Shown piece after piece: positions 31,239 to 63,992 of a DNA stretch of 64,000 nt; position 1 is the first letter of the stretch; every line of letters starts with the position of its first letter. A program made the translations under genes and the position numbers. Below the pieces are notes generated by a model. The model was not told the DNA's origin. It ran no database searches and worked only from the letters and a program-made list of their open reading frames with translations. The stretch comes from Escherichia phage phAPEC8, in the sequence record NC_020079.1. One strand, given 5' to 3'.

Positions 31239-31467
31239 TTCTTCCTCCTAATGTTATCTCCGGTTTGTATATACGAAGAATTATAGCATTTTCATTTTCT
31301 TTGTCAACCCATTCTTCATAATCGGGCCATACATGAATCTCTACTCTACTTACAATATCTTCCATCCGCACAATCCCAATGAAATACTCTTTGAGACTGC
31401 GCATAATGAAAGCTTCTCTCTCGCGCCAATAATTTTCTACGACTTGAGAGGCAAGCTCGTCGATCAT
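31219..31467 (-). CDS. Hypothetical protein
   Basis: 82 aa ORF, coupled. Confidence 0.3.
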   Translation of the reverse strand: MIDELASQVVENYWREREAFIMRSLKEYFIGIVRMEDIVSRVEIHVWPDYEEWVDKENENAIILRIYKPEITLGGRSVKLRN

Positions 31468-37179: not shown

Positions 37180-38154
37180 TTAAACAGCAGCTTCTTCTTT
37201 TTCAGGGAAGATAAAGCTTGCAATAACACCAAGAGCTAATGTGCCTAGAACAATCATCAGACTTACGTTAGGGGAAATATCATGCGGGAGGAATGACCAC
37301 TTGGCATGAAGTGTTTCACCGAACGGGTGATACATAAGTTTAGCACCGACAAATACCAGAACCACAGCAACAGCTTTCTCTAAGTGAACCAGATATTTCA
37401 CAGCCACACTTAACACAAAGAAAAGTGCACGTAAACCAAGAACAGCCATCAGCATTGCAGAATAAACTAGCAGAGGTTCTTGTGTCACACCGATCACAGC
37501 CGGAACTGAATCAAAAGAGAAGACAATATCTGTAAGCTCAATAACAAACACACAAAGAAGAGCAGGAGTTGCATATTTAATACCATTCTTAATGGTGATG
37601 AACTTTTCACCATCTAGTGCATTGTGCACAGGCAGAACTTTACCTACTAAACGAACAGCCCAATGCTTAGAGTAATCAATATCCTCTTCTTCGTCACCAC
37701 CTTTGATGATAGCCACGGCAGACCAAGCTACAATCAAACCGAACAACACTTGGACCGACCAATGAAGGTTAAACAAAGCGGTCCCTGCTGCAACAAAAAT
37801 ACCTCGGAAGACAATGGCTCCTGCAATCCCCCAAAGTAAAATCTTATGTTGGAGATGTGTGCTCTTAATTCCAAAGCTTGCAAAAATTGCCATGAACACC
37901 ATCAAGTTATCTACAGAAAGACTCTTTTCCAACACATAGCCACTTAGGAAAAGCGCGGCAAACTCTTTACCATGTTCTACCCAAATGAATGCGTAATATC
38001 CTAAAGCTAAAGCAATCCAAAAAACAGACCAAAGCAAAGCAGATTTAATTCCAATTTCTTTATTCTCTTTATGACCAAAGAAATCGATACCAATAGACAA
38101 TGCTAAAATACCAACCAAAACAACTACATCAATAATGGGGAAACCAAGTTGCAT
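37180..38154 (-). CDS. terC: TerC-family integral membrane protein
   Basis: 324 aa; multiple TM helices; EKSLSVDN motif characteristic of TerC. Confidence 0.75.
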   Translation of the reverse strand: MQLGFPIIDVVVLVGILALSIGIDFFGHKENKEIGIKSALLWSVFWIALALGYYAFIWVEHGKEFAALFLSGYVLEKSLSVDNLMVFMAIFASFGIKSTHLQHKILLWGIAGAIVFRGIFVAAGTALFNLHWSVQVLFGLIVAWSAVAIIKGGDEEEDIDYSKHWAVRLVGKVLPVHNALDGEKFITIKNGIKYATPALLCVFVIELTDIVFSFDSVPAVIGVTQEPLLVYSAMLMAVLGLRALFFVLSVAVKYLVHLEKAVAVVLVFVGAKLMYHPFGETLHAKWSFLPHDISPNVSLMIVLGTLALGVIASFIFPEKEEAAV

Positions 38155-38173
38155 TATTTTCTCCTTTCTCTTT

Positions 38174-38232
38174 GCGGGGAACCACTCCCCGCCTCATGTG
38201 ATACATCTTACTCTATTCTAAAACTTTGTCAA
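38174..38232 (-). promoter_or_regulatory. Early-type promoter plus 5' hairpin cassette driving terC
   Basis: - strand reads TTGACA-N16-TAAGAT-gtatcacat-GGCGGGGA-gtggt-TCCCCGC-aaagagaaaGGAGaaaataATG; same architecture as the 60-64 kb cassettes. Confidence 0.55.
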
Positions 38233-38470: not shown

Positions 38471-38944
38471 TTAAAGTTTATAAATAGTCACATCGTGACC
38501 TGTTTTTACTAAAGTTTCTTCAATCATCACTTGGATGATAGCCCAATTACCTCCAGCATGTCCAGCGCCAATCATAGGTAAGCCGATCTTACATTTTTGG
38601 TCACGGAGAAGCAAATCGTTAGCCATAGCTATTAGTGCATCGTAAAGTGCATCATAGTCCAACTGACGACCTTTAGCATTGTATCCGTAACGGTATTGCC
38701 CGTATAGATTATATACCAAAGGGTCTGATTGTTCGTCTGGCACTCCTAAACTAAAACAACCTAGTTTACTTTGATCACCAGCCATTGTGTCTAAGTCTGC
38801 TGCATATGCGTAAGGAAATGCTCGTTTGATTTGTGGGGCAATACCTGCCCCCATATTACACATACAGTTGCAACAATGAGCAATAACAGTTACTTCACCT
38901 GCTTTAGCGGCATCAATAAGATTACCTGTTTTCATTTTAAGCAT
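38471..38944 (-). CDS. Macro domain protein (ADP-ribose binding/processing)
   Basis: Start at ATG behind AAGGAG; VIAHCCNCMCNMGAGIAPQIKRAFP and IGLPMIGAGHAGGNW parallel the two macro-domain glycine-rich loops. Confidence 0.55.
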   Translation of the reverse strand: MLKMKTGNLIDAAKAGEVTVIAHCCNCMCNMGAGIAPQIKRAFPYAYAADLDTMAGDQSKLGCFSLGVPDEQSDPLVYNLYGQYRYGYNAKGRQLDYDALYDALIAMANDLLLRDQKCKIGLPMIGAGHAGGNWAIIQVMIEETLVKTGHDVTIYKL

Positions 38945-38957
38945 TTTTAGCTCCTTA

Positions 38958-39785
38958 TTACAGAATGTGTTGTTTTGTGTAACGATCCAAGAATTCAAAG
39001 TTTTCAGCATACTTTGAAATTCGGTTGTAACCTTCTCCCAAGCATCCAAAGAAAAGTTGCTCTACATAGTAATGTGGCAATTGGCTAAGAATGATTTTGA
39101 AGTCTTCATGATTTTGGCCCATAAGATACTTAATAGGACGAACAAGACACTGTGCATCACGTTCTTCATTAATCATTTTAACAAACGCTTCCGGTGTATT
39201 AATGTAGTTAAAATTCAGTTTAGCTTCGGTATCTGCTTGATTACCTTCATATTTTGCAAAATACAGGAAGTAAACATCATTTTTAACTTGATTTTCATTA
39301 AGGATCTCAATCAGTTTGTCTTCATGCGTTCCAGTGATATTTACATCATCAATGAATACAAGCTTCTTATCACCCCAGAATTCTTTGTTACAGTAGAATG
39401 TATCCCCATCAATAAGTTTCTTACGACTAGCTTTATCCAAGAAACCATAATCGTTGATATAGCTAACTTTACGATGAATAATGTCCAGTTCTGCTGAACG
39501 ACCTTGATCATATTGTGATTGCAACATATTAAAGTAATTAATAAAATGATCTGTCATCATTGTTGCAGCATTATGCACATGGTTGTAAGGAGAAGGAATG
39601 ATAACAAATTGTTCCCCAATATGTTTCATTGCCACTTGAGCAAAAAACTGAAGTGCCAATTCTTTACCCATACGACGCGCGGCTTGGTTACTACCAAATT
39701 TCAATTTTGAATAATCTTGGATATCAAAAGTAGCAGTTTCCAGGTCATCAAATTTATTTGCAAAAATTTGAGTTTGATTACGCAT
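38958..39785 (-). CDS. Phosphoribosyltransferase (type I PRTase fold) domain protein
   Basis: 275 aa; KLVFIDDVNITGTHEDK matches the PRPP-binding motif (hydrophobic-DD-x-x-TG-T). Confidence 0.55.
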   Translation of the reverse strand: MRNQTQIFANKFDDLETATFDIQDYSKLKFGSNQAARRMGKELALQFFAQVAMKHIGEQFVIIPSPYNHVHNAATMMTDHFINYFNMLQSQYDQGRSAELDIIHRKVSYINDYGFLDKASRKKLIDGDTFYCNKEFWGDKKLVFIDDVNITGTHEDKLIEILNENQVKNDVYFLYFAKYEGNQADTEAKLNFNYINTPEAFVKMINEERDAQCLVRPIKYLMGQNHEDFKIILSQLPHYYVEQLFFGCLGEGYNRISKYAENFEFLDRYTKQHIL

Positions 39786-40434
39786 TTACAATTTCTCCTC
39801 TTTTAAGTTTCTCTAGTAAGTCGTTAGGGTTCTTAATATGACAGAAGTTAAATCCTAAGTCAACACATTTTCCATCATATTCTTCACTATCGCCTACGTG
39901 CAATACTTCGTGCCCTAACAGAGGGATCGGAGAATACGTGAGCGTGCGAGCAAAGAATCGCGGATCTGGTTTACAAAGTAAAGCTTCATCCGAGAAATGG
40001 GTGAACTCAAAACAATTCCAACTATCAAACTTACAAGCACGACGCAGGATATCCCCTGATATAAAGTTGGTATTGCTCTTAATACTCAAATCATAACGTC
40101 CCGAAAGATACAGCAAGTACATCGGCAGATCCACGGCTACGTGTGGTGGAAACTTAAGGAACCACTGTTCACACTCGAAACGAAGCTTTGCAGACTTCCA
40201 AGGTGTTATCCCAAGTTCAGAACCAAGTCTTTCCCAGGCGTATGCTGCACACTCGGCTTTGCCTTGAAGTGCTGCATTATCCAGTTCCTTTTTGATCTTC
40301 TTATAAGCTGCTCTTGCTTCCACTTCCGTAATATCTCCATATTTTGCGATAGTCCAGGCTCGCATGTCTGCGTAATTGGAGTTTGCTGTGATCAGTGTGT
40401 TCCATACATCAAAAGAGATATGTTTAATAGTCAT
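39778..40434 (-). CDS. HAD-superfamily hydrolase/phosphatase-like protein
   Basis: 218 aa; N-terminal ISFDVWNTLI (nucleophile Asp motif I variant) and HVGDSEEYD (motif IV-like). Confidence 0.45.
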   Translation of the reverse strand: MTIKHISFDVWNTLITANSNYADMRAWTIAKYGDITEVEARAAYKKIKKELDNAALQGKAECAAYAWERLGSELGITPWKSAKLRFECEQWFLKFPPHVAVDLPMYLLYLSGRYDLSIKSNTNFISGDILRRACKFDSWNCFEFTHFSDEALLCKPDPRFFARTLTYSPIPLLGHEVLHVGDSEEYDGKCVDLGFNFCHIKNPNDLLEKLKRGEIVNA

Positions 40435-58848: not shown

Positions 58849-59000
58849 TCCTATACAAACCCTTATCTTTTTCAGTTTGCATCACTAGGATTCGATCTAA
58901 GTGGGTTCCTGAAGGTTTACCAATAAGATTAAAGGTTATCTCAAATTCCCACTACCTATTATCTCAAAAATCCCTCAAATTATTTAAACTTTTTAAGAAT

Positions 59001-59047
59001 TTACAAAAGTGAAAGTTGAAAACCAAAATTTAAAGTTTAGGAAAATT
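59001..59047. repeat. AT-rich direct repeat, copy 1
   Basis: ttacaaaagtgaaagttgaaaaccaaaatttaaagtttaggaaaatt; about 75% identical to the copy at 59139-59186. Confidence 0.5.
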
Positions 59048-59138
59048 ATCTTAAAATGTTAGATACAAAACAAAACTCAAAAGTCAAGGAAAATTTTAAA
59101 AATTTTGCGCGCCCACAGTATTTAAAGTTTTTTTGCTT

Positions 59139-59186
59139 TTACAAAAATGAAAGTACAAAAGCAAAATTTAAAGTTTACAAAAATTT
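59139..59186. repeat. AT-rich direct repeat, copy 2
   Basis: tttacaaaaatgaaagtacaaaagcaaaatttaaagtttacaaaaatt. Confidence 0.5.
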
Positions 59187-59223
59187 ATGCAGGTGGGAAT
59201 GAGAAGAGTTCTCATGTGGAAAT

Positions 59224-59242
59224 GCAAATGATAATGATTCGC
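59224..59242. promoter_or_regulatory. Fur-box-like palindrome 1
   Basis: gcAAATGATAATGATTcgc; 14/19 to consensus GATAATGATAATCATTATC. Confidence 0.35.
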
Positions 59243-59281
59243 ATTTAAGTTTATAAATGAGATTGATTCTTATTCAATAAG

Positions 59282-59300
59282 GTAAATGATAATCATTCTC
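59282..59300. promoter_or_regulatory. Fur-box-like palindrome 2
   Basis: gtAAATGATAATCATTctc; core AATGATAATCATT perfect, 17/19 to consensus. Confidence 0.45.
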
Positions 59301-59531
59301 ATTTAGAGAATGACGCGCAGGGGTGGTGTTTGTCTCGCGCTCCCGTGTCCCCTCGCCATGTAATAAGAATAACAGATCCAACCAGGAAAGCAAGCGATTA
59401 TTTTATCTTTACATTTCTTTACAAATATATAGCGCCCAGCCTACCGGCGATCAACCTTCCAACCAGTGCCCCTGGTATGTTAGCCCCGCCTTTACGCCGT
59501 GGGGTGGCGCTTCCTCTTCTGTATGTAAAAC

Positions 59532-59560
59532 AGTATAAGCCCGATCCCTGGGCTTGTCAA
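59532..59560 (-). promoter_or_regulatory. Strong sigma70-like promoter on - strand facing the GC-rich non-coding segment
   Basis: - strand TTGACA-N17-TATACT; the same DNA on + strand forms hairpin AAGCCC..GGGCTT followed by a T-rich run. Confidence 0.4.
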
Positions 59561-59562
59561 TA

Positions 59563-59829
59563 TTATTTTTTGTTTTCTTGCCAGGATAGGACACCTAACC
59601 AAAAATGCATGTCGCCCCGCGCCCCTGGTGGGATCTTGCTTTCCCCGCCGCCACTGCAAGCCCATAAATAACCATCAGCGAACGGATCAAAATTTTCTAT
59701 TTCTTCCACCTTATGATCGCCCAGGTTGAGAACTGTTTCAACCTTTAAGCCCGTTGCGCTTGCTACCTGGTGCACCGTGCCGCCTTGCCAGCCCAATGAG
59801 TGCATAAGGTGTAATGTAGTATTTGTCAT
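59563..59829 (-). CDS. Hypothetical protein with high-GC, host-like composition
   Basis: 88 aa ORF; GC-rich codons unlike neighbours; upstream TTGCTA-N17-TATTAT. Confidence 0.4.
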   Translation of the reverse strand: MTNTTLHLMHSLGWQGGTVHQVASATGLKVETVLNLGDHKVEEIENFDPFADGYLWACSGGGESKIPPGARGDMHFWLGVLSWQENKK

Positions 59830-59938
59830 GGTGTCGCCCTTTCTTTGTTGTGCGCCCTGGTTGGCGCGGTAGAAAGATAATAGCCCTTTCCTTTACATAT
59901 AGCAAGCAAAAAGAAAATAAAAAAGATTGAAAAAGTGG

Positions 59939-59997
59939 TTGACGTTCCTCACCTGGTAGCGTAGTATTCATCTTGTAGGGCGGCAATGGTGCCGCTC
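59939..59997 (+). promoter_or_regulatory. Promoter-hairpin cassette 1
   Basis: TTGACG-N17-TAGTAT then GGGCGGCAATGGTGCCGCTC hairpin, RBS, ATG 60017. Confidence 0.55.
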
Positions 59998-60016
59998 ACT
60001 ATTTGGAGTTAAGATC

Positions 60017-60214
60017 ATGGCAACATTGCACATTGTGGCGAAAGCTGGACAAATCAACGTAATAGTAAACGGTTTTACTGAGTTCAGTCATCCCCAGGAT
60101 GATCATGAAACGGTTTTATCTTTCATTGATTCCCTGTTAGAAATGGGAGTAATTACAGAAGACCAGCACGCTACAAAATGCAAACGCGTTAATCAAATTG
60201 CAGGAATAGAATAA
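60017..60214 (+). CDS. Early small protein
   Basis: 65 aa; RBS GGAG. Confidence 0.45.
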   Translation: MATLHIVAKAGQINVIVNGFTEFSHPQDDHETVLSFIDSLLEMGVITEDQHATKCKRVNQIAGIE

Positions 60215-60220
60215 AAAGTA

Positions 60221-60282
60221 TTGACAACAAACAACAACCTGATAAGATGTACCACATAGGGCGGCGGAATGGTCCACCGCTC
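60221..60282 (+). promoter_or_regulatory. Promoter-hairpin cassette 2
   Basis: TTGACA-N16-TAAGAT then GGGCGGCGGAATGGTCCACCGCTC. Confidence 0.55.
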
Positions 60283-60304
60283 ACAACAGAAGAGAGAAAT
60301 CATC

Positions 60305-60577
60305 ATGGCATCATATAGCGCAACAATGATCGTAGTCGGCACCACTGGTAAACCTATGAGCGGTGGCGGATCTTTCGCAAATATCAACATTGACGGGCGT
60401 TTATCCCTGGACGCAGCGATCACCGTGGCGCGGGAAACATTTAAGAAAGAATGTAAATTCAATAAACAAGATTATCTCGGTTTCGCTATTGAAAAAACCG
60501 CGCGTTTTGTTGATTATAAAAGCCCAAAAATGGTTGATACTACACTAAAAGCGCAAGATGTAGCGTTTTTGCTTTAA
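60305..60577 (+). CDS. Early small protein
   Basis: Start at ATG (MASYSAT) behind AGAAGAGAGA; the longer track ORF begins inside the hairpin. Confidence 0.45.
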   Translation: MASYSATMIVVGTTGKPMSGGGSFANINIDGRLSLDAAITVARETFKKECKFNKQDYLGFAIEKTARFVDYKSPKMVDTTLKAQDVAFLL

Positions 60578-60580
60578 GGC

Positions 60581-60635
60581 TTGACATTAACGAATAATTT
60601 GTTAATATGTTACATAAAGCGGGAATAGTTCCCGC
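60581..60635 (+). promoter_or_regulatory. Promoter-hairpin cassette 3
   Basis: TTGACA-N16-TAATAT then GCGGGAATAGTTCCCGC. Confidence 0.55.
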
Positions 60636-60653
60636 TATTTGTAAGGTGGTAGA

Positions 60654-60911
60654 ATGTTTTACATCAAATTAAAAGGTCACGTGATCGCGTTCAAAGATAA
60701 CGCTTTTTACAGATTAGCAAAATATGCGTTAATACATCCCCACTATGTTTATATAAGGGGGCGTGATGAAATAAATATCTTTGATCAAACAACATGCGAA
60801 AACATCGAGATCCGCAAGGTTGGCGTACGTGATTATCGTACATCTTTCTACCCTTGCAAGGATTCAGCAAGTCTTTTTAAAGTATGCCAATTGTTGAAAA
60901 AAGGTGGTTAA
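60654..60911 (+). CDS. Early small protein
   Basis: 85 aa; RBS AAGGTGG. Confidence 0.45.
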   Translation: MFYIKLKGHVIAFKDNAFYRLAKYALIHPHYVYIRGRDEINIFDQTTCENIEIRKVGVRDYRTSFYPCKDSASLFKVCQLLKKGG

Positions 60912-60912
60912 T

Positions 60913-61470
60913 ATGGGCCGCGAATATGTGATCCAGTCTTGGGTAAAACATGAAGCAGATGATCCGCGCATCATTCCCGATCATCTTATCGATGAATCCA
61001 CGGGATATAGCGGTGAGCAAATAGGTAACAGATTAGCACGTAGTAACGGCAACGTAAAAGCGCGTTATGTGCGCCCTGGCTGGCTGGCAAATGGTAACGC
61101 TGATTTATCCAGTGCGGAAGATGCGAGCGACGGCGCGAAAGATAATCCTTTGTACAAAGTTGATCCGGCTTTTCGTGTCCTAGATGAATACCCCAGCAAG
61201 ATAGCGGCGCTTGATGAAGCATTGGAAAGTAAGCGCATCACCTGGACCGCTTACAACATGGCAAAAAACGTACTTGATGGTAAATTGATTCAAGCTGAAA
61301 GAAAATTAGCCAAAATTGCAGCCATAGCCCAGGAGGAAGACGAGGAGACAACGGAAGAGGAAGAGTACGAAGAGATCCCGCCGTTGTTGTGTGTTGATGC
61401 TTTTCCTGATTATCAGCCGACAGAGGAAGAAAAAAGGATCGCACTAGAAAACTTTGAAAATAGTCTTTGA
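60913..61470 (+). CDS. Early protein with acidic C-terminal region
   Basis: Start at ATG (MGREYV) behind AAGGTGG; EEDEETTEEEEYEE stretch. Confidence 0.4.
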   Translation: MGREYVIQSWVKHEADDPRIIPDHLIDESTGYSGEQIGNRLARSNGNVKARYVRPGWLANGNADLSSAEDASDGAKDNPLYKVDPAFRVLDEYPSKIAALDEALESKRITWTAYNMAKNVLDGKLIQAERKLAKIAAIAQEEDEETTEEEEYEEIPPLLCVDAFPDYQPTEEEKRIALENFENSL

Positions 61471-61525
61471 CATATCGCCGCCACTGGCATAATATTTACC
61501 ACGTAGGGCGGCAATGGTGCCGCTC
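61467..61525 (+). promoter_or_regulatory. Promoter-hairpin cassette 4
   Basis: TTGACA-N17-TAATAT then GGGCGGCAATGGTGCCGCTC. Confidence 0.55.
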
Positions 61526-61552
61526 ATAGTGAAATTATGCAAGAGGCTTACA

Positions 61553-61660
61553 ATGATTAATAAAGGAAATAGCTTGACAGTTGGAACGATTAACGCTATC
61601 ATCTTAGTCGTTCCATTCTGGATCACCGTGGCAGTTATCGCAACAATCATTTTCAAGTAA
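61553..61660 (+). CDS. Small hydrophobic peptide (35 aa, not in ORF track)
   Basis: MINKGNSLTVGTINAIILVVPFWITVAVIATIIFK; first ORF after cassette 4. Confidence 0.3.
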   Translation: MINKGNSLTVGTINAIILVVPFWITVAVIATIIFK

Positions 61661-61670
61661 GGGGCACACC

Positions 61671-61862
61671 ATGTTTAAAAATATCACTGGCAACGTAGCA
61701 ACATTGAAAGCAGGCGACAAAGTAGAATTGCACCGGATCACAATGACAGTAGCGCACGTCGAGAAAGTGCCACCGCATCACCGCAAGATCTCGCTAATGT
61801 GCGACAAAGGGCGCAACATTACCGCCACACTGCACGAAAAAGATAACGTAGTCATTTTGTAA
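61671..61862 (+). CDS. Early small protein
   Basis: 63 aa; RBS AAGGGG. Confidence 0.4.
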   Translation: MFKNITGNVATLKAGDKVELHRITMTVAHVEKVPPHHRKISLMCDKGRNITATLHEKDNVVIL

Positions 61863-61872
61863 GGTGGACACT

Positions 61873-62154
61873 ATGAGCAAGGTAATTAACTATAAAGAGT
61901 TAAGCCCTACCCTTTCAATGAGTGAATGTACCGATGGGTATTGGCTGTATGATGAAACGCGCGGCATGAATTTAGCAATGCAAGCGAAAACCGAACAAGC
62001 GGCATATGTGCAAGCCCTGGAATATTACCAGCGACGACTACAGGAAGTCGAAAGCAATTATAAAAGCCTGAAATCAAAGGTTGATCACTTTATCAACCAG
62101 GTAGCAGATGACGATGATGATCACTACTGCGAACGATGCGGATCATATAGTTAA
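61873..62154 (+). CDS. Early small protein
   Basis: Start at ATG (MSKVINYK) behind AAGGTGG. Confidence 0.4.
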   Translation: MSKVINYKELSPTLSMSECTDGYWLYDETRGMNLAMQAKTEQAAYVQALEYYQRRLQEVESNYKSLKSKVDHFINQVADDDDDHYCERCGSYS

Positions 62155-62162
62155 AAATATCT

Positions 62163-62224
62163 TTGACAACGTTTAAAATTAGTGTAAGATGTATCACATA
62201 GAGCGGCGGAATGGTTTCCCGCTC
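62163..62224 (+). promoter_or_regulatory. Promoter-hairpin cassette 5
   Basis: TTGACA-N16-TAAGAT then GAGCGGCGGAATGGTTTCCCGCTC. Confidence 0.55.
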
Positions 62225-62245
62225 ACAACAGAGAGATTAAAGATT

Positions 62246-62473
62246 ATGGCTATCAATATTGTTCGCGTATCCGGTACCGTTGGTAACTCCCAGGTTGTAG
62301 CAGTTATCACAGAGAAGAAAGGGGATGATCTTCACTCTTCCTTGAATAGCTGGGCGGTCGCTAACTTCGGGCAATGGTCGAGCGTTGAGTACATCGAATC
62401 CTACCAGGTGCCGACGATTAGCCTAACCGATCTCAACGTTGATCGCTTGTTGTGCCTGGATGAATTAATCTGA
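62246..62473 (+). CDS. Early small protein
   Basis: Start at ATG (MAINIV) after purine-rich RBS; the track ORF start at 62189 lies in the hairpin. Confidence 0.45.
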   Translation: MAINIVRVSGTVGNSQVVAVITEKKGDDLHSSLNSWAVANFGQWSSVEYIESYQVPTISLTDLNVDRLLCLDELI

Positions 62474-62483
62474 AAAAAGATTG

Positions 62484-62541
62484 TTGACACCGGAAAGAAA
62501 AAGAGTAGAATATATTACATAGGGCGGCAATGGTGCCGCTC
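62484..62541 (+). promoter_or_regulatory. Promoter-hairpin cassette 6
   Basis: TTGACA-N16-TAGAAT then GGGCGGCAATGGTGCCGCTC. Confidence 0.55.
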
Positions 62542-62564
62542 ACAACAGAAGAGAGATTATCACG

Positions 62565-62780
62565 ATGGCTAATATCCGCACTTTACTGAAAAATGCAAGT
62601 CAAGTTTTATTTTCAGATGACGAGTATTTCAATAAAGACATTACAGGCGTGAAAAATTTAAAAGACGTGAAGGATGTTATCGGTATCCGTGGATCTTTAC
62701 GTAAGGGCGATTACTACGGTAACAAGGTGCAATATAAACTGTCAAAGGATTACAATTTTACTTTGACAATTATTTCATAA
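62565..62780 (+). CDS. Early small protein
   Basis: 71 aa ORF. Confidence 0.45.
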   Translation: MANIRTLLKNASQVLFSDDEYFNKDITGVKNLKDVKDVIGIRGSLRKGDYYGNKVQYKLSKDYNFTLTIIS

Positions 62781-62786
62781 AACCGC

Positions 62787-62846
62787 TTGCAATACTGCAA
62801 AAATAAAGTAAACTATATTCATCAAGGCGGGGAATGGTCCGCCGCC
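62787..62846 (+). promoter_or_regulatory. Promoter-hairpin cassette 7
   Basis: TTGCAA-N16-TAAACT then GGCGGGGAATGGTCCGCCGCC. Confidence 0.45.
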
Positions 62847-62870
62847 TAACAAAGAGAAGAGGAAAATATC

Positions 62871-63038
62871 ATGATCACTTTCGCTACCCGTGAAGCCGCT
62901 CGCAACGTTGCACGTAAAGTTAACGCCGCCAACCTGGGCGCTACACTTAAAGCCCCGGTAAAAGATGAATCAGGAAAATGGATCTTCCCTGGTTTGCGTC
63001 ACGCTGACAAGTTAGGTACTTTAAGCCTTAAAAAATAA
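62871..63038 (+). CDS. Early small basic protein (55 aa, not in ORF track)
   Basis: MITFATREAARNVARKVNAANLGATLK...; first 15 nt identical to the gene at 63113. Confidence 0.35.
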   Translation: MITFATREAARNVARKVNAANLGATLKAPVKDESGKWIFPGLRHADKLGTLSLKK

Positions 63039-63041
63039 TCG

Positions 63042-63078
63042 TTGACTTTTCGTTATAGCGCCTTATAATGGGCGCTAT
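63042..63078 (+). promoter_or_regulatory. Promoter with palindrome overlapping the -10 (cassette 8, variant)
   Basis: TTGACT-N16-TATAAT embedded in ATAGCGCC-ttataatg-GGCGCTAT. Confidence 0.5.
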
Positions 63079-63112
63079 AGAGAAGAGAAACCACTACTAA
63101 CAAGGAAACATC

Positions 63113-63334
63113 ATGATCACTTTCGCTATTGTCGCCGTTGTCGCTGGTCAAGTTTACGTAAATGAGACATTTACTACAGAAGACAAGGCGGCAGGAGATA
63201 TAACCGCCGTTTACAACGAGTGCAAGGCAGTAGAAAGGATGTTAGCGCCTTGTATGCTAATGAGTGAACGCCAGGACGGGATAACAGTATTTACTAACAT
63301 TGAAACAGGGTACCAAATGGTAGTAACAAAATAA
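63113..63334 (+). CDS. Early small protein, N-terminally hydrophobic
   Basis: 73 aa; MITFAIVAVVAGQVYV. Confidence 0.4.
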   Translation: MITFAIVAVVAGQVYVNETFTTEDKAAGDITAVYNECKAVERMLAPCMLMSERQDGITVFTNIETGYQMVVTK

Positions 63335-63337
63335 AGC

Positions 63338-63394
63338 TTGACACGGATTTAATTTTCAGTAAACTGTTACACGTAGGGCGGGAATAGTTCCCGC
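63338..63394 (+). promoter_or_regulatory. Promoter-hairpin cassette 9
   Basis: TTGACA-N16-TAAACT then GGGCGGGAATAGTTCCCGC. Confidence 0.55.
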
Positions 63395-63412
63395 TAAAAA
63401 GAGAGAAAGACC

Positions 63413-63766
63413 ATGAAAGCACAAAATGCAATTAAAGAGTACATCCTTGCCGCTATCGATTTTAATGATCACGGTATTACAACCGAAAAAGAGAAGATCG
63501 CGGAATTGATGCGCCGTTTTAATTCCGAGTACTGGTACCCTGATAACCAATCACGTTTTAATTATAGTATTGTTAAAGCACTTGCATCATGGTTACAAGG
63601 TTTGCCATCAGATATCAATATCGCTTTCGAATATTGGGAAATTGATCGCTTGTTAACATCCTGGGGATACATTAAAGAGAATAGCAACGATGATAAAATC
63701 CAACGAGAAAGGGAAAATTATTGGCTTTATATTGCAGGCGTGATCCTTGCTTGCTCTTATGAATGA
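63413..63766 (+). CDS. Early protein
   Basis: 117 aa; RBS AGAGAGAAAGA. Confidence 0.45.
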   Translation: MKAQNAIKEYILAAIDFNDHGITTEKEKIAELMRRFNSEYWYPDNQSRFNYSIVKALASWLQGLPSDINIAFEYWEIDRLLTSWGYIKENSNDDKIQRERENYWLYIAGVILACSYE

Positions 63767-63772
63767 TAAACC

Positions 63773-63826
63773 TTGACAATTTTACAAAACAGTTTAAATT
63801 AACAATATAGCGGCAATGGTGCCGCT
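63773..63826 (+). promoter_or_regulatory. Promoter-hairpin cassette 10
   Basis: TTGACA-N16-TAAATT then AGCGGCAATGGTGCCGCT. Confidence 0.5.
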
Positions 63827-63845
63827 CATATGAAGAGGAAACAAA

Positions 63846-63992
63846 ATGAATACATCTGATCGCGCAGAAAAAATTCAATCTTCCAAGATCCGCAAGGCCT
63901 GGAACGAGGAAGTGATCCGCAAAGGCGACAAGCGCAATAAAACAAAGCGCGGGAAGAGTGACAAATATAATTGGATGGATTTAGAGGATTAA
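63846..63992 (+). CDS. Early small basic protein (48 aa, not in ORF track)
   Basis: MNTSDRAEKIQSSKIRKAWNEEVIRKGDKRNK...; RBS GAGGAAA. Confidence 0.35.
   Translation: MNTSDRAEKIQSSKIRKAWNEEVIRKGDKRNKTKRGKSDKYNWMDLED

Follow-up and report, generated by a model that had tools for sequence, protein, structure and literature searches.

A promoter-hairpin cassette shared by terC and an array of small genes in Escherichia phage phAPEC8

Main finding

In Escherichia phage phAPEC8 the gene terC is preceded by a conserved sigma70-type promoter and by a structure that has been selected for pairing and is strictly coupled in position to that promoter. It is well supported that this upstream element belongs to the family of cassettes that stands in front of the genes of a small-ORF array in the same DNA. 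Our analysis concerns 64,000 nucleotides of sequence record NC_020079.1, which we call the window. The window belongs to Phapecoctavirus (Stephanstirmvirinae), and its 4-kb terC region is 99.4% identical to that of Escherichia phage vB_EcoM_ASO2A.

Anatomy of the cassette at terC

On the - strand an 81-nt gap separates a 73-aa ORF from terC, and in it lies the cassette, which we read base by base. The order is TTGACA, N16, TAAGAT, GTATCACATgag, GCGGGGA-gtggt-TCCCCGC, aaagagaAAGGAGaaaata and the ATG at 38154. The initial annotation had described the - strand as TTGACA-N16-TAAGAT-gtatcacat-hairpin-RBS-ATG and had placed this at 38174-38232; the layout agrees with our reading base for base, and the coordinates are exact, with the -35 hexamer at one end and the last base of the hairpin at the other. 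The gene and its signals are as follows.

38238-38236, - strand: stop codon of the upstream 73-aa ORF, followed by gtg and then by the -35 hexamer (from reading of the sequence)
38232-38227, - strand: -35 hexamer TTGACA; TTGAC is invariant in eight orthologous terC cassettes
38210-38205, - strand: -10 hexamer TAAGAT, separated from the -35 hexamer by a 16-nt spacer; T, A and the final T are invariant in orthologues
38193..38204, - strand: region between the -10 hexamer and the hairpin, GTATCACATGAG, containing the predicted start
38192-38174, - strand: leader hairpin GCGGGGA / loop GUGGU / UCCCCGC, 7 bp, -14.3 kcal/mol
38155..38173, - strand: A/G-rich unstructured leader with the Shine-Dalgarno sequence AAGGAG (38166-38161), 6 nt before the ATG
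37180..38154, - strand: terC, a 324-aa TerC-family integral membrane protein (PF03741, E 3e-40; phrog_7180)
37173-37149, - strand: canonical intrinsic terminator, AGCCTCCttcgGGAGGCT + ATTTTAT (hairpin 37173-37156), directly after the terC stop codon

An A-rich stretch (caaaataag) lies 5' of the -35 hexamer, and the stop codon of the 73-aa ORF falls inside it. Downstream of the -10 hexamer, GTATCACAT occupies 38204-38196 (-) and is followed by gag before the stem; the same sequence is found, without a difference, at 62191-62199 in an array cassette. Since transcription usually begins 6-8 nt after the -10 hexamer, the predicted start is A 38199 or A 38197. The stem sets in 12 nt after the -10 hexamer, its 5' arm is G-rich and its 3' arm C-rich, the apex reads AGUGGU, and there is no T-tract after it. 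From the end of the stem to the ATG there are 19 nt, which is also the median over the 53 cassettes of the family, and in the folded leader both the Shine-Dalgarno sequence and the AUG are unpaired. Compared with composition-matched shuffles of the same 60 nt, the fold energy of the leader is unremarkable (z -1.2); given that the energy is not exceptional, the case for a structure rests on covariation instead.

The gene itself carries the annotation TerC in phAPEC8 and in phiWec188. Its terminator was detected by a consensus terminator scan and is annotated as a terminator in ASO2A as well, and in 10/10 relatives examined terC is likewise followed by an equivalent G/C hairpin that has a T-rich tail. 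With a terminator immediately 3' of terC, the cassette promoter can drive terC alone. There is no terminator 5' of the terC promoter, so that terC may also be reached by read-through from upstream.

Three genes upstream of the promoter deserve mention.

39778-40434, - strand: HAD hydrolase
38958-39785, - strand: PRTase_3, ComF-like
38471-39049, - strand: phosphatase/macro-like protein

Together these genes (38471-40434) correspond to the nucleoside-derivative 'signal biosynthesis' components of bacterial Ter systems; neither TerD nor TerB was seen near them. An abbreviated Ter system thus appears to be present in a phage of about 150 kb. PRTase, HAD and TerC have been regarded as components of a Ter system before, with a suggested role in superinfection exclusion (PMC7824862).

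The initial annotation went further and held that the cassette ties the Ter block to the early regulon. This is overstated. The part that stands is that terC carries a cassette of the same family as the array; the PRTase_3, HAD and phosphatase/macro genes are all upstream of the promoter, and a terminator comes right after terC. The other genes in the long - strand block around terC do not have the cassette.

Membership in the array family

Nine array cassettes lie within the window.

59939..63848, + strand: part of the array inside the window, nine cassettes of the same family as the terC cassette
59939-60019, 60221-60307, 60581-60656, 61467-61555 and 62163-62248, + strand: array cassettes 1 to 5
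62484-62567, 62787-62873, 63338-63415 and 63773-63848, + strand: array cassettes 6 to 9

The pattern TTGACA-N(15-18)-TAAGATGTATCACAT, 37 nt in length, occurs twice in the window, at 38232 (-) and at 62163 (+), and not once in 100 shuffles. The 9-mer GTATCACAT by itself is a different matter: with one mismatch allowed it has 20 matches where 17.9 are expected, which is chance level, and we rejected it as stand-alone evidence. As the 9-mer is uninformative, the evidence lies in the composite pattern. A generic scan of the 64 kb for a -35 hexamer with at most one mismatch, TAnnnT and a perfect G/C-rich stem of at least 6 bp returned six array sites and terC, and no others. When the nine array cassettes are aligned with terC, the positions TTG, TA...T, GCGG, the apex A.U.GU and CCGC are invariant.

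A covariance model was also built from the nine array cassettes only (59.9-63.9 kb), with terC excluded. It scores terC at 51.6 bits (E 6.5e-8), while the next best site reaches 19.8 bits. Hence the earlier statement that the terC element matches the early cassettes is confirmed by a model that had not been given terC, and gtatcacat is indeed shared with the cassette at 62163. A covariance model from all ten cassettes found no further copy above 22 bits in the window.

Distribution in the genome

We assembled a whole-genome equivalent from the window and ASO2A 145-151.66 kb and 1-86.5 kb. ASO2A has about 21 cassettes, all on the + strand and all located either from 146.6 kb to the end of the record or at 0.24-4.4 kb, which amounts to one contiguous run of about 9.5 kb of small genes with unknown function. 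The region 59.9-64 kb of the window is the start of this array, which goes on past the end of the window. In the remaining ~135 kb the covariance model found no cassette above 22 bits besides the one at terC. A motif scan over the complete genome had been proposed along with the initial annotation, and in the whole-genome equivalent the result speaks against its notion of a genome-wide regulatory unit: all copies but one (about 21) sit in a single small-ORF array, and terC is the only outlier.

In the genome scan every match to the hairpin pattern has a promoter at the fixed distance; orphan hairpins lacking promoters were looked for and none was found. The converse does occur. At least four strong sigma70-like promoters without a hairpin stand directly before - strand genes (52237, 51194, 31307 and 23781). 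At each of these sites the promoter (e.g. TTGACA-N16-TATAAT at 31307) leads straight into a purine-rich leader with a Shine-Dalgarno sequence and then into a small gene whose function is unknown, and they may represent a second class of promoters for host RNA polymerase in the - strand block. One further match without a hairpin, TTGACA-N17-TATCAT (11/12 matches, 61574-61602, +), lies inside a 48-aa ORF of the array (61514-61660).

Conservation and covariation

The same promoter-hairpin layout precedes terC in ESCO37 and phiWec188 (Phapecoctavirus), in ECGD1 (Justusliebigvirus), in Citrobacter phage Tr1 and in Klebsiella phage KP13-26, and also in four IMG/VR contigs. That the link between terC and the cassette is evolutionarily old is, judging from these sequences, well supported. 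In Klebsiella phage KP13-16 terC lacks the cassette. There the gene starts with GTG only 28 nt after the preceding gene (L008 1159-1188), which offers a natural comparison without the cassette.

Across eight orthologous terC regions TTGAC, the 16-nt spacer and TAnnnT are kept while other bases diverge. The stems vary among the relatives (GCGGGGA, GCGGAGGA, AGAGGGAG and AGGGAGAG) and pairing is retained: compensatory changes are seen in five of the eight pairs, and one-sided changes in none. In these orthologues 93.8% of the cells are paired; shuffles give 76.4%, and sliding the partner columns gives 48-65%. The U and the G of the loop are invariant in terC orthologues and in paralogues even where the stem has been replaced completely, as can be seen from the contrasting stems AGAGGGAG-AUAGG-CUCCCUCU and GCGGGGA-GUGGU-UCCCCGC.

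A wider set comprises 53 distinct cassettes from three Stephanstirmvirinae lineages. Here 91.7% of the cells are paired against 82.1% in shuffles (0/500 reach the observed value) and 43-60% when slid, and there are 19 G.U pairs versus 9 A.C/C.A, i.e. a modest excess of G.U on the sense strand. The polarity of the arms is pronounced, with G 305 / C 101 in the 5' arm and G 109 / C 279 in the 3' arm. The -35 hexamer is TTGACA in 44/53 cassettes. Further marks of the family are a spacer of 16-17 nt, a TAnnnT -10 and an A-N-U-N-G-U apex, and all of these are seen at terC. Loops are mostly (A)AUGG or (A)AUAG, and the pattern (A)U(G/A/U)G covers about 44/53. In terC and in 53/53 aligned cassettes the stem-loop comes after the -10 hexamer; the core stem sets in 10-11 nt after the -10 hexamer in 27/53, and in most of the others the predicted stem reaches nearer to the start site. 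Among the first 8 nt past the stem there are 0-3 T in 53/53 cassettes, and the tail at terC, AAAGAGAA, has no T in 8.

The arrays of ECGD1 and Tr1 consist of the same cassette family, and the Vequintavirus PDX also carries cassettes. At the array positions first guessed in KP13-26 and ECGD1 no cassettes were found; the ECGD1 array sits at the start of its record. We considered concerted evolution of terC and array hairpins within each genome as a rule and rejected it, as the Tr1 array has stems of the GCGGGGAA type and the Tr1 terC stem is AGGGAGAG. Compensatory changes together with hexamers kept at the same place in several genera point to purifying selection on the element, and not to a decaying scar.

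Variant elements in and near the array

Some elements in the window resemble the cassette in part only. The first, at 63042-63115 (+) within the array, has TTGACT-N16-TATAAT and a hairpin of 9-10 bp at 63054-63079, TATAGCGCC(T) / (G)GGCGCTATA, whose loop is the -10 hexamer (63064-63069); the leader has no hairpin. This is the layout of the RB49 type of PeSL (see below), and so both layouts coexist within one array. At 59532-59560 (-), TTGACA-N17-TATACT (11/12 matches) has a spacer that is itself a hairpin, AGCCCagggatcGGGCT. This promoter points leftwards to a non-coding repeat region, and its layout is the PeSL-like one with the stem-loop between -35 and -10. These two, 63042 (+) and 59560 (-), are the only RB49-like variants in the window.

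The first array cassette has a divergent partner at 59829-59905 (-), with TTGCTA-N17-TATTAT and the hairpin GCGCC-aaccag-GGCGC (59867-59852), followed by acaacaaagaaaggg and then by the ATG at 59829 of an 88-aa gene (-). This element is conserved in ECGD1 (L013 - strand, position 144) and is too weak for the cassette model.

An AT-rich non-coding stretch, 58976-59305, separates the last - strand genes from the array. Within it there are several direct repeat families with units of 72 nt, 29 nt and 50 nt, AATGAGA..ATCATT motifs and one inverted repeat, and a similar repeat region is found at the right end of the ECGD1 record. A replication origin, or else a genome-end/packaging region, may be located here.

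Possible roles of the hairpin

The reading we prefer is that the hairpin is a leader RNA structure at the 5' end of transcripts from its own promoter, not a terminator, and that it protects the 5' end of the mRNA; in our judgement this is about equally apt to stand or to fall. That it would be a leader element and not a terminator is suggested by three features: there is no T-tract, the stem lies about 10 nt after the -10 hexamer, and the hairpin never occurs without the promoter. The cassette would then be a compact, self-sufficient expression unit, of a type that these phages put in front of small genes presumed to be immediate-early. It would consist of five parts, namely a strong promoter for host sigma70 with a perfect -35, a 16-nt spacer, a TAnnnT -10 and A-rich sequence upstream, a short conserved stretch that would hold the start site, the G/C-rich stem-loop about 10 nt after the -10 and thus within the first ~5-25 nt of the transcript, an unstructured purine-rich leader, and finally the Shine-Dalgarno sequence with the ATG. 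With this cassette and its own terminator, terC would form an autonomous monocistronic unit, readable by unmodified host RNA polymerase at DNA entry.

The 5'-terminal hairpins of the E. coli ompA and T7 gene-10 (phi10) mRNAs protect them from 5'-end-dependent decay. The likeliest role of the phage hairpin would be of the same kind, i.e. shielding the 5' end from 5'-end-dependent decay (RppH/RNase E), and the hairpin would also ensure that the surroundings of the ribosome-binding site are always the same and open. The likeness includes a stable hairpin near the predicted 5' end, its fixed distance from the predicted start, an unstructured leader and a strong ribosome-binding site. Certain points do not fit well. 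From work on ompA, protection of the 5' end reportedly favours about 4 or fewer unpaired 5' nucleotides; from the predicted starts, typical array copies would have 3-5 unpaired nt and terC 5-7 nt, so the single strand at terC may be at or beyond the protective limit. Furthermore, stabilisers need no conserved loop, whereas here the loop U and G are invariant, and these together with the fixed G-then-C polarity of the arms are superfluous for a pure stabiliser. The invariant bases would leave room for an extra sequence-specific partner. Finally, in transcripts that read through from upstream genes, the terC hairpin would be internal.

The timing of expression is a related issue. We infer 'early' timing of the cassette genes from the sigma70 consensus and the type of gene, and an early role of TerC in ion/membrane physiology or in superinfection exclusion is suggested in the same spirit. 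A literature search on Phapecoctavirus, phi92, rV5 and relatives found no transcriptome or expression timing. An Srd-like anti-sigma candidate has been reported in the rV5 paper, and a sigma70 shut-off is plausible in this phage group.

The first alternative, which we consider unlikely but worth a careful discussion, relates the hairpin to the PeSL (promoter-early stem-loop) cassettes of the T4-like phages RB49/phi1, PST/T4 and nt-1/KVP40 (Arbiol et al. 2010, PMC2839356; Comeau et al. 2014, PMC4122927). As a terminator or attenuator of this type it would stop or dampen transcription from upstream, and perhaps partly its own, with the result that genes are dosed independently. In sequence the PeSLs and our cassettes are alike as repeated intergenic modules of ~80-100 nt, in which an AT-rich flank and a sigma70 early promoter are combined with a G(n)-loop-C(n) stem-loop and, at the 3' end, with a Shine-Dalgarno sequence and an ATG. 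Both kinds of module are concentrated before small ORFans in a hyperplastic region, and in both, indels between close relatives end at cassettes. A PeSL stem-loop of RB49/phi1, of the same G(n)-loop-C(n) make-up, cut reporter expression as strongly as rrnB T1 (PMC2839356). In addition, there are no canonical + strand terminators between the genes of the array, where the cassette hairpins are the only strong intergenic structures, and the ASO2A sites were labelled as terminators by WebGeSTer (a few by TransTermHP). On the other side, the scarcity of T after the stem in all 53 cassettes is not what a terminator would have, and the consensus terminator scan misses the cassette hairpin, yet picks the real terminator after terC. 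A terminator at a fixed distance past its own promoter would also terminate the transcript that it serves. The position is different as well. In RB49/phi1 the stem-loop lies between -35 and -10 or overlaps the -10, and in PST/nt-1 it lies just upstream of the promoter and is read as the terminator of the preceding gene (PMC2839356, PMC4122927); PeSL stem-loops are thus upstream of or inside the promoter, whereas ours is in the 5' leader, ~10 nt past the -10, without a T-tract and never without a promoter. The lineage is another one too, Stephanstirmvirinae and also Vequintavirus. Because the defining layout differs, we do not file the element as a PeSL, but as a variant of the PeSL-like kind in another lineage.

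The same considerations apply to intrinsic terminators in general. Both have a short loop on a G/C-rich stem of 7-10 bp, but the cassette hairpin comes after a promoter and has no T-run, while the real terminators of the phage have a UUCG loop and a T-run (37173-37149). GenBank MZ726793 already annotates both parts of the cassette, as a 'promoter' and as a 'rho-independent terminator predicted by WebGeSTer'; from the sequences, the terminator label on the cassette hairpins in GenBank is probably wrong.

The second alternative, to which we give a similarly small share of our belief, is that the hairpin is a recognition site for a trans-acting factor, either an RNA-binding protein of the phage or the host or a DNA repressor on an inverted repeat at about +5 to +25, by which the array and terC would be switched jointly, on or off. 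The genes with the cassette would in that case make up a true post-initiation regulon. Several observations favour this reading: the loop U and G stay invariant in paralogues and orthologues despite replaced stems, about 44/53 loops conform to one consensus, and the polarity of the arms is fixed. Moreover, the presence of other sigma70-like promoters without a hairpin means that the hairpin marks a subset of genes. However, we identified no candidate factor, and since the terC stems of Tr1 and KP13-26 are unlike the stems in the Tr1 array, a factor could recognise nothing but the loop and the general shape. That the loop is conserved among paralogues may be due in large part to common descent and to gene conversion between copies, and compensatory changes and G.U pairs speak against a double-stranded DNA operator that is read by base identity. 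A more specific version, in which the hairpin would be the address tag of a dedicated phage or host RNA-binding regulator of stability or translation, serving the ORFan array and terC as one immediate-early gene set in Stephanstirmvirinae and Vequintavirinae, is in our view rather more doubtful. If it is true, the rV5/phi92/phAPEC8 supergroup would have an early regulon that acts post-transcriptionally and for which no description exists so far.

The nut sites of lambda (boxB, bound by N) are a parallel, being short hairpins with a conserved loop and a variable stem soon after an early promoter. The loop, however, is AURG-like in our case and a GNRA-like pentaloop, GAAAA/GAAGA, in boxB; no boxA was found, there is one copy per gene and not per operon, and no N-like protein has been identified. 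We did consider antitermination of the boxA/boxB kind as a candidate and rejected it; by eye, GCTCACAACAGA after the stem bears a weak resemblance to the boxA of rrn. The Mn2+ riboswitch yybP-ykoY (alx, mntP) is likewise a regulatory leader before a TerC-family gene. The phage leader differs in being ~45 nt long with a single hairpin that is common to unrelated phage genes, and Rfam returned nothing meaningful, and no yybP-ykoY, either for the window at the gathering threshold or for the terC leader at E up to 10.

The third alternative, a very improbable one, is that the cassette is mainly a recombination module and that the copy at terC is the footprint of a cassette-mediated insertion of terC, with no regulatory role at present. 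Recombination at cassettes is suggested by the comparison with ASO2A, where 61622-62153 of the window is replaced by 1.35 kb (L002 3316-4665) with three more cassettes, so that two small genes of the window stand against three cassette-gene units. The window and ASO2A become homologous again at 62154, which is 9 nt short of the -35 hexamer of the 62163 cassette, and a second indel between the two has its end at the 62787 cassette. Identity with ASO2A is only 89% over 62154-62773, against 97% in the flanks. Mini-circles and shuffling at PeSLs are documented in T4-like phages (PMC2839356, PMC4122927). Against a mere footprint, the terC cassette is found in the same place in several genera, with compensatory changes in the stem and conserved hexamers. 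Recombination and a regulatory role are not exclusive, nor are the rival readings in general.

Finally, a chance placement of a sigma70-like site beside an unrelated inverted repeat has practically no probability left: generic sigma70-like matches in 34-44 kb are indeed at chance level, being no commoner than in shuffles (25 vs 26.1), but the composite pattern is absent from shuffles, the leave-one-out E value is as low as given above, and the element is conserved at the orthologous position across genera. These results have already refuted this reading.

Implications

To our knowledge, the transcription programme of the phAPEC8, phi92 and rV5 groups is essentially unmapped. These phages are widely used as candidates for therapy and biocontrol. 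The cassette provides a precise and testable definition of a probable immediate-early promoter class in these groups. The papers on ASO2A and rV5 do not describe the composite of promoter and hairpin, and the promoters in the rV5 supplement extend only up to +7; nor did a literature search find a description of the cassettes in Phapecoctavirus, phi92 or rV5. A practical consequence concerns databases, in that many GenBank 'terminators' located right after promoters are probably mislabelled leader hairpins.

We do not wish to overstate the case. The cassette is an ordinary kind of regulatory module, which does not overturn current understanding and is of moderate interest for the transcription biology of phages. 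Given that the position of the hairpin is unlike that in T4-type PeSLs, it may be that another lineage of myoviruses evolved similar modules, or adapted them, to serve a different purpose. Of the genes outside the ORFan array, terC is the one that has the cassette signal, and if TerC is made at once on infection, this would fit a role in membrane/ion physiology or in superinfection exclusion (for the Ter system, see PMC7824862).
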